From assembly GCA_951406725.2 (NCBI GenBank), contig OX597832.1:67022001-67086000 (forward strand): 64,000 nt of DNA, in the 5' to 3' direction. Of this stretch, positions 15,034-18,575 are shown one piece after another; positions within the stretch are counted from its first letter, which is position 1; every line of letters starts with the position of its first letter. Under the pieces are notes generated by a model. The model was given only the letters and a program-made list of their open reading frames with translations, was not told where the DNA came from and did no database searches. The position numbers were made by a program, and so were the translations under genes. The stretch comes from Octopus vulgaris (Eukaryota).

Positions 15034-15226
15034 TATATATAAAAACTTACTTGGAGAAAAGAAACGAAACGATGCGAGGGCGCTCAGTCAGAAAATAAAT
15101 TAATTAAAAAAATATATGCATACATATATACCTATATGTACGTGCTTACATCTATATTTATATATACTATGACTGAGCGCCCTCGCGTCGTTTCGTTTCT
15201 TTTCTCCAAGTAAGTTTTTATATATA
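15034..15226. repeat. Fold-back element with near-perfect ~57 bp arms
   Basis: aaaaacttacttggagaaaagaaacgaaacgatgcgagggcgctcagtca versus tgactgagcgccctcgcgtcgtttcgtttcttttctccaagtaagttttt. Confidence 0.92.
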
Positions 15227-15653
15227 ATTATGACGCGAACTCTGTAACCGTTTACTTGACCTTTCCTTCCTTCCTGTCTGTCTTCCTCTTTACCTGTCTC
15301 TCTCCTTCTTATTTTTCACCCTTTCTGCTTTCCTTTCCTCTCTATCTCTCTCTCTCACTCACTCCTCCCCATCTCTCTCACTGCTGAGTGGATTACGAAC
15401 TTCCTTTTGCTCGCAGCTTTCTACAAGTCAGCACCGACTATTTCTTGCGCTCCGAATTTTTGCATCGTCTAGGCTTAAAAAAAAGCCCTCAATGTTGGTT
15501 TCATTGTCCTGTTTTTATTCTTTATGTGTACTGTATTTTTATTTGTATTATTTTTACGTCTTGTTCTTGTCACATTTTTTTCTTTTCTTGTTTTACTCCT
15601 CTGCAAAAGAATTTTATTTAATTCTTTCGCAGGAAGGACTGCTTCGCCCGGAT

Positions 15654-15715
15654 CGTGTTCTGTCCTTACCTTCGAAACACGCATTGAGTCGAACCAGGGA
15701 CAGCTGATGAAGGGG
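15654..15715 (+). ncRNA. Candidate non-circularly permuted hammerhead ribozyme
   Basis: Order is cgtg-TT-ctgtcctt, then ccttc-GAAA-cacg, then agggacag-CTGATGA-agggg. Stem III is 5 bp, stem I 8 bp, stem II about 4 bp with G-U pairs. Confidence 0.5.
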
Positions 15716-15951
15716 AATATTCCTTGTATTGTTTGTCTTGTACTCCGTTTTTTCGTTGTTAAAAAAAGTCCGTTTCCTATTTTTTTTTGTTTTCGTTTCT
15801 CGTTGTGTTCTAAGTTTACTTGTGGTGTCCTGTACTCATATTTATATACATATATATGCAAGTATATATACATATAGATGTAGGTACGTACATATATGTA
15901 TGTATGTGTGCATATATATTATTTATTAAATTATTATACATATATATATAC

Positions 15952-18219: not shown

Positions 18220-18311
18220 AGGAGAGAGAGATGAAACTTACTTGGAAAAGGATGCTTGTCGTTTGATCATATAATATTATAAATAATATATATAAATATA
18301 TGCATATATAC

Positions 18312-18575
18312 ATACATATATGTACATACCTACAAATATATGTATATATACATGTATATATGGGTACAGGACATCAAAAAAGAACGTTGAACACAATGAG
18401 AAACGAAGACATAAAAACAAAAACATAGAAACGAACATTTTTTCAAACAACGAAAACAGAGAAACGAGACATGCAACATAAAGAATATTCTCCAACTCGT
18501 ATTTTGTTGTCCTGTACCCATATATGCATGTATATATACCTATATTTGTAGGTATGTACATATATGTATGTATAT
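18312..18575 (-). mobile_element. 3' end of the element at 15710-15870 in minus orientation, with an inverted terminal arm
   Basis: gtacaggaca..aacacaa.gagaaacgaa..gaatattc matches 15715-15840. Arms are tatatgggtacaggaca and tgtcctgtacccatata. Confidence 0.75.

Follow-up and report, generated by a model that had tools for sequence, protein, structure and literature searches.

A sequence-only reading of a 64,000-nucleotide stretch of Octopus vulgaris contig OX597832.1 (the window, throughout) had placed the three strands of a hammerhead ribozyme at 15654-15715 of the plus strand, in an order that is not a circular permutation of the usual one. The locus thus raises the question of whether strands so arranged can make up a working hammerhead, and of how the RNA chain would run through it. 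All three strands lie where they had been placed: the cleavage strand is CGTGT-T-CTGTCCTT (15654-15667, +), the GAAA strand is CCTTC-GAAA-CACG (15669-15681, +), and the third strand is AGGGACAG-CTGATGA-AGGGG (15696-15715, +). The reading's 5-bp stem III (15654-58/15677-81, the U16.1-A15.1 pair included) and its 8-bp stem I with a single G-U pair (15660-67/15696-703) are equally accurate, as is the non-circular strand order, which Eckert et al. 2023 (PMC10085705) call type SGC. The core boxes CUGANGA, GAAA and NUH are intact both in this copy, whose cleavage triplet is GUU, and in nearly all of 70 aligned copies. The 5' limit of 15654 fits the three strands but not the motif, which really starts at 15633, 21 nt further 5'. 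Read 5' to 3', the parts follow one another as stem II strand, joining helix, cleavage block, GAAA block, joining helix, and stem I strand with CUGANGA:

15633..15637, plus strand: 5' strand of stem II, GAAGG, with G15633 as G10.1; five of five pairs with 15669-73 are Watson-Crick, and the strand lies upstream of the cleavage block
15639..15648, plus strand: 5' strand of the joining helix, which corresponds to Eckert's stem I-II helix 'I' and looks like a coaxial extension of stem III
15654..15659, plus strand: stem III strand CGTG with U16.1 (15658) and H17 (U15659), from sequence and covariation
Between 15659 and 15660, plus strand: predicted cut, by analogy with hammerheads; the step in 5' ends agrees
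15660..15667, plus strand: 3' strand of stem I, with a core of 6 bp (15660-65); beyond it, two further pairs compete with the joining helix
15669..15673, plus strand: 3' strand of stem II, CCTTC, with C15673 as C11.1, after a 3-nt linker from stem I like that of type SGC
15674..15681, plus strand: G12, A13, A14, A15.1 and the second stem III strand, from the 70-copy alignment
15688..15697, plus strand: 3' strand of the joining helix, pairing with 15639-48
15698..15710, plus strand: 5' strand of stem I and CUGAUGA (C3-A9); the chain exits the ribozyme after A9
15711..15724, plus strand: G-rich tail, able to fold into a hairpin of its own or to serve as a weak alternative stem II

We consider it quite probable that these parts form a conserved, covarying hammerhead fold of SGC/CSG topology, carried by a Penelope-type repeat that a Naiad reverse transcriptase (RT) mobilises, and that the fold cuts its transcript after U15659.

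The match is well above the level found in shuffled sequence. An S-G-C descriptor demanding at least 4 bp each in stem I and stem III finds one match in the window, this site, against 0.05 matches per window in 60 block-shuffled control windows, and a descriptor with the full upstream stem II and a stem I of at least 6 bp finds none in shuffled windows. Across the genome, two exact patterns return 4,245 and 5,442 matches, with one match each for the reversed-pattern controls. Standard models pass over the motif, as had been foreseen: Rfam gives no match to a hammerhead across 15580-15780, not even at E<=10, and for the whole window it returns microsatellite-driven miRNA matches only, among the matches listed (150 of 253). 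By its strand order the motif is not the circularly permuted, pseudoknot-free junction of types I, II and III and of the Rfam hammerhead families. A canonical type I ribozyme built with the downstream hairpin was also tried and ruled out, as GTAT or GTGT follows instead of GAAA in all copies.

Seventy copies of the repeat, 40 of the loci chosen by pattern and 30 by similarity, were aligned with MAFFT blind to structure; 85.7% of cells are paired, compared with 38-45% once the partners are slid. Two-sided changes number 269 cells, compared with 108.5 +/- 12.2 after shuffling, a count inflated by the relatedness of the subfamilies, since inherited events are counted many times; they affect 5 of 6 pairs in stem I, 3 of 5 in stem III and 8 of 10 in the joining helix. 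Around the core, stems I and III keep their register and show covariation; the stem II that the sequence-only reading had drawn shows no compensatory change. The core is intact in 67 of the 70 copies, a count biased by the 40 loci that were chosen with a pattern requiring the core. Variation within the core is at N7, which is A, U or G, and H17 is C in 42 copies, U in 17, A in 11 and G in none. The G-rich tail varies at its start (TTGGG or CGGGG in loci L120, L121, L151 and L154), and a conserved fourth helix between leader and tail at the opening was sought by eye and none was found. In the window copy itself 8 of the 10 joining-helix pairs form, and its pseudoknot-free minimum-energy fold contains stem I and neither stem III nor stem II.

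The strand that completes stem II decides the path of the chain. The weak stem II proposed earlier, with the AGGGG that follows CUGAUGA, has compensatory change in none of four pairs in one register and, in the other, in a single cell at one of five pairs; it is broken at pair 3 in a Naiad family linked to an RT and impossible in a coral-type family, and from these comparisons it probably had the wrong partner. Among 59 copies that reach upstream, out of 90 picked by a downstream anchor, the upstream stem II keeps five Watson-Crick pairs in 44 and four in 15. Its first five pairs are nearly invariant within the repeat family and hence do not covary there, so the test of stem II must rest on other families; a sixth pair is C-G in 16 of the 70 aligned copies, both sides changing together. 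In the RT-linked Naiad family of this genome stem II reads GACACC/GGTGTC, with 25-29 of 29 copies paired per position, and the downstream register pairs in 3 of 29 and is broken at pair 3 in 26. In a coral-type metagenome family it reads GGCTCC/GGAGCC, and the downstream strand meets A-C and C-C mismatches in both registers. This family makes up 52 of 120 metagenome pattern loci, with five of the six upstream letters set by the pattern; 45 of the 120 matches pass the descriptor, and most of those outside the family are chance. As the selection pattern demanded the upstream strand in 40 of the 70 aligned loci and in all coral-type loci, the decisive covariation is that between only three computed families, plus consensi read by eye: a G10.1-C11.1 stem II is obtained only with the upstream strand, and it covaries between families, not within the family. 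A register with a 2-nt insert before GAAA was dropped, the upstream strand fitting all families. Viral contigs gave three pattern matches, and the two distinct ones inspected were chance. One coral-type contig (L438) carries an RT end upstream (E = 3.5e-4).

With this five-of-five upstream partner, and with a 10-bp helix connecting the outer ends of stems I and II, the chain appears to be opened between A9 and G10.1. Eckert et al. (PMC10085705) named type SGC and validated it in vitro, described its 3-nt stem I-stem II linker and helix 'I', and collected 583 SGC and 2 CSG examples from environmental and RefSeq searches; they assumed that block C (stem I strand-CUGANGA-stem II strand) is uninterruptible, which gives six possible orders. 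The octopus motif has the S, G, C order and shares with their SGC and CSG ribozymes the non-circular block order, two pseudoknots (predicted here), the short linker of 3 nt, the helix joining stems I and II and the full core. Block C is continuous in their ribozymes, whereas here it is interrupted: no stem II strand stands directly after CUGANGA, and the chain ends fall between A9 and G10.1. We infer that the motif is the SGC/CSG ring with its three linkers closed, opened between A9 and G10.1, inside the block held to be "unbreakable". Their ribozymes were tested for cleavage, and their main text names no animal or retroelement source ('mollus' and 'octopus' have 0 occurrences), while the octopus motif sits in an animal Penelope-type repeat. 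A rearranged Xenopus hammerhead named in the sequence-only reading could not be found, the word having 0 occurrences in the same main text.

As a monomer, the RNA would fold into a double pseudoknot in which the joining helix clamps the distal ends of stems I and II, much as Eckert's helix 'I' does. It had been held that this strand order needs a pseudoknotted or a multimeric fold; the pseudoknot is what our model predicts, and the joining helix would permit a pseudoknotted monomer like Eckert's and make a multimer unnecessary. Catalysis would fall to G12 and G8 by hammerhead chemistry, these being catalytic in all hammerheads according to the portion of PMC11300833 covered here. The repeat copies likely cut their own RNA: a fraction of tandem read-through transcripts would be cut, and the 3' product would be reverse-transcribed and inserted at (TA)n with about 0-12 nt lost at its 5' end. 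Uncut RNA would also be used, because most copies reach beyond the site.

Two other architectures would use the same strands. If the motif were a classic type SGC ribozyme, stem II would be the G-rich strand after CUGAUGA, set off by one extra A, and the upstream GAAGG would be a competitor or switch. A 4-bp stem of this kind (G-C/G-U/G-U/G-C, two Watson-Crick and two G-U pairs) is possible in 95% of cells and in 50 of the 59 downstream-anchored copies, and, in the parts of the papers covered, an extra base after A9 is usual in hammerheads of Penelope-like elements (PLEs; PMC4209133) and present in Eckert's SGC-1 and SGC-3 oligos (PMC10085705). This pairing, however, lacks two-sided change and is no better than shuffles or a slide of -2; its duplex energy is 0.0 kcal/mol, compared with -4.6 kcal/mol for the upstream partner; it is missing from the Naiad-RT and coral-type families, which retain all else; and helix 'I' cannot be drawn with it, so that we regard classic SGC as unlikely. 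The active form might instead be a domain-swapped dimer of two tandem units or two molecules, the CUGANGA strand of one completing the hairpin of the other, an arrangement that would suit the tandem repeat units and spare the monomer a sharp bend at a 5x6 internal loop; minimal PLE hammerheads have been proposed to act as dimers (PMC4209133, covered part). Stem III is nevertheless long and stable, unlike that of the dimer-dependent minimal type, a palindromic loop is not conserved, and cis cleavage was seen for Eckert's ribozymes, which have the same three linkers (PMC10085705, covered part), and a dimer strikes us as very improbable. The opened monomer remains the preferred architecture.

Whether such a fold acts in the animal can be approached through the 5' ends of truncated copies. 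Among an initial 30 copies, selected by the 3' half of the motif, many start just past the predicted cut. Two samples were then counted, each the first 90 listed matches of a pattern search and all on one contig: in sample A, 25 of 89 copies at risk have their 5' end at -2..+12 compared with 3 of 64 at -17..-3, and in sample B, anchored about 56 nt downstream, the figures are 16 of 73 and 1 of 57. For the merged unique copies these become 38 of 147 and 4 of 109 (Fisher p = 7.5e-7; background about 0.003 per nt), with bins drawn after the first 30 copies had been inspected and with copies that are not fully independent. Taking out five fold-back or deletion junctions leaves p = 8e-6, and TA density is equal on either side of the cut (0.039 vs 0.042). 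The mode of the ends lies at +6..+8, not at 0, and ends are also elevated at +13..+44. From these genomic copies, the pile-up suggests cutting in vivo. The same truncations could arise by stalling, were the motif a non-catalytic, hammerhead-derived structure that binds or blocks the RT: the raised density of ends throughout the fold, the position of the mode and the GUU triplet of the window copy would all agree with this. The sharp drop, on the other hand, coincides with the phosphate predicted to be cut, G is avoided at H17, and N7 alone is variable; moreover, as each helix has one of its strands 3' of +11, the RT should meet an already unwound fold on reaching 0..+12. We therefore give stalling very little credence beside cutting by the opened monomer. 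For a PLE of Anolis (PMC11167929, in the part covered), insertion in vitro did not require hammerhead cleavage and reads ending at the site were absent, so the genomic 5'-end step would be new information. At L192 and L227/L290, junctions of inverted copies use the complementary stem I strands of the ribozyme as the fold-back point.

The repeat that carries the motif is anchored in (TA)n, as the sequence-only reading had recognised. Its parts in the window, with those of a related copy, are as follows:

About 15121..15938, plus strand: one unit of a non-coding Penelope-type repeat, from a DNA search of the genome
15030..15167, minus strand: inverted copy of the repeat's 3' tail on the insertion's 5' side, an arrangement shared with PLE insertions
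15210..15632, plus strand: candidate intron, CAA|GTAAGT to pyrimidine tract and CAG|, from sequence only, with its acceptor exactly at G10.1
18229..18493, minus strand: 5'-truncated copy of a sister subfamily, which begins downstream of the ribozyme and so does not contain it

A DNA search with the repeat gave 41 listed matches out of 3,067 candidates. Units of 730-1135 nt stand in tandem, are 5'-truncated and flanked by (TA)n, and often have an inverted tail on their 5' side, an arrangement given for PLEs in the covered part of PMC8557442; tandem units, 5' truncation, the 5'-side inverted copy and (TA)n targets are together the marks of a non-autonomous Penelope-like element. No ORF was found within 4 kb upstream of the motif in any of 40 long loci, and no autonomous partner element among 90 loci or among 40 loci taken with 4 kb of upstream sequence. 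Downstream of the motif in L019 (minus strand) is a 225-aa open stretch with a zinc finger and a GIY-YIG-like end, presumably a canonical PLE nested in the same (TA)n. The AG of the candidate intron is kept in 47 of 70 aligned copies and is mostly GG elsewhere; the motif of the RT-linked Naiad family is flanked by similar donor and acceptor words. The copy that had been noted at 18350-18495 is indeed truncated; it lies on the minus strand and is a copy of a sister subfamily, to which it is 88-89% identical. The other elements of the window had been credited with ordinary hammerheads; four copies of another Penelope-type repeat (8131, 9046, 14956 and 21969, minus strand) do carry a minimal type I-like motif with an extra A before stem II, but its core is CUGUNGA (A6->U) and not CUGANGA.

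Some Naiad elements bear the same layout. The published octopus Naiad motif is matched exactly at 273 sites in this genome, and in five loci of the RT-linked family (L116, L162, L171, L174 and L185) the hammerhead motif lies 1-1.5 kb after the end of the RT. These RT ends match RVT_1 at E = 2e-4, weaker than the curated cut-off; the loci show the opened layout after the RT end and no endonuclease behind the RT, and an N-terminal endonuclease was not seen in them. The repeat family of the window shares this layout, not the sequence, and at L174:315-590, one of 30 RT loci, its inverted 3' tail lies head-to-head with a 5'-truncated Naiad RT, a junction that is suggestive of shared machinery. On the layout and this one locus, the non-coding repeat is likely mobilised by the Naiad reverse transcriptase. 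The opened layout, with a 6-bp stem II and a 14-bp joining helix, also occurs on an unrelated metagenome contig (L436:1861-1947, plus strand), where an ORF that encodes a UCH deubiquitinase domain (PF00443, E = 7e-28) ends 64 nt upstream.

The Naiad paper (Craig et al. 2021, PMC8557442) states, in the part covered here, that Naiads lack canonical hammerheads, and lists 10 cases of HHR_core and 8 of HHR_half_core. Inspection by eye of its consensi, among the matches listed (for example 45 of 62 and 15 of 30), revealed nine that fit the opened layout, from a ctenophore, a hydrozoan, three corals, a box jellyfish, a crustacean and two octopuses, and seven from nematodes that match type CSG, block C being unbroken and helix 'I' present, and that seem complete (File S5); the names are certain for the three corals, the two octopuses and two Nippostrongylus, the rest following from file order. 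Each opened consensus has its own stem II pair, examples being GGCCCA/TGGGCC, GGCTCC/GGAGCC, GGCCCC/GGGGCC, GACGCC/GGCGTC and GACACC/GGTGTC. The consensi from a spider, an ostracod and one other cephalopod gave no clear fit by eye in the covered material. Naiads as described there share with the octopus repeat a preference for (TA)n, tandem and inverted copies, and, in the 3' UTR, half-cores on either side at a spacing of 35-50 nt, Naiad_Ovul being marked as an HHR_half_core; the covered part gives no fold for the cores, and the family of the window differs in being non-coding. The minimal type I hammerheads of PLE pseudo-LTRs and non-LTR retrozymes (PMC4209133; bioRxiv 10.64898/2026.07.22.740005, as far as covered) likewise lie in a repeat of a PLE or a non-autonomous derivative and tolerate an extra base after A9, and in Penelope of D. 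virilis an intron end also stands beside a ribozyme strand; those ribozymes, however, are circularly permuted, have a vestigial stem III and need dimers, whereas the octopus motif has a long stem III and predicted pseudoknots.

No report of the opened layout, or of permuted hammerheads in Naiads, was found in the non-subscription literature searched, and the covered parts of PMC13725137, PMC10162972 and bioRxiv 2026.09.16.752053 do not describe the layout. On balance we favour, with less assurance than the fold itself, the broader reading that the opened form is a seventh natural hammerhead layout and the ribozyme of many Naiads from ctenophores to octopuses (with its circular permutation, type CSG, in those of nematodes), that it cuts element RNA in the germ line, and that cut 3' products template a sizeable share of insertions. 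If this is true, the stated limit of six hammerhead permutations would be broken, and non-circular permutations would pass from rare environmental RNAs to thousands of copies in animal genomes. The unexplained half-cores of Naiads would be accounted for, and an evolutionary route between layouts would come into sight, since CSG and the opened form differ in where one and the same ring is opened. With the step in 5' ends, hammerhead cleavage in PLE transposition would have its first genomic footprint, and the step makes the in vivo role of PLE hammerheads directly testable.
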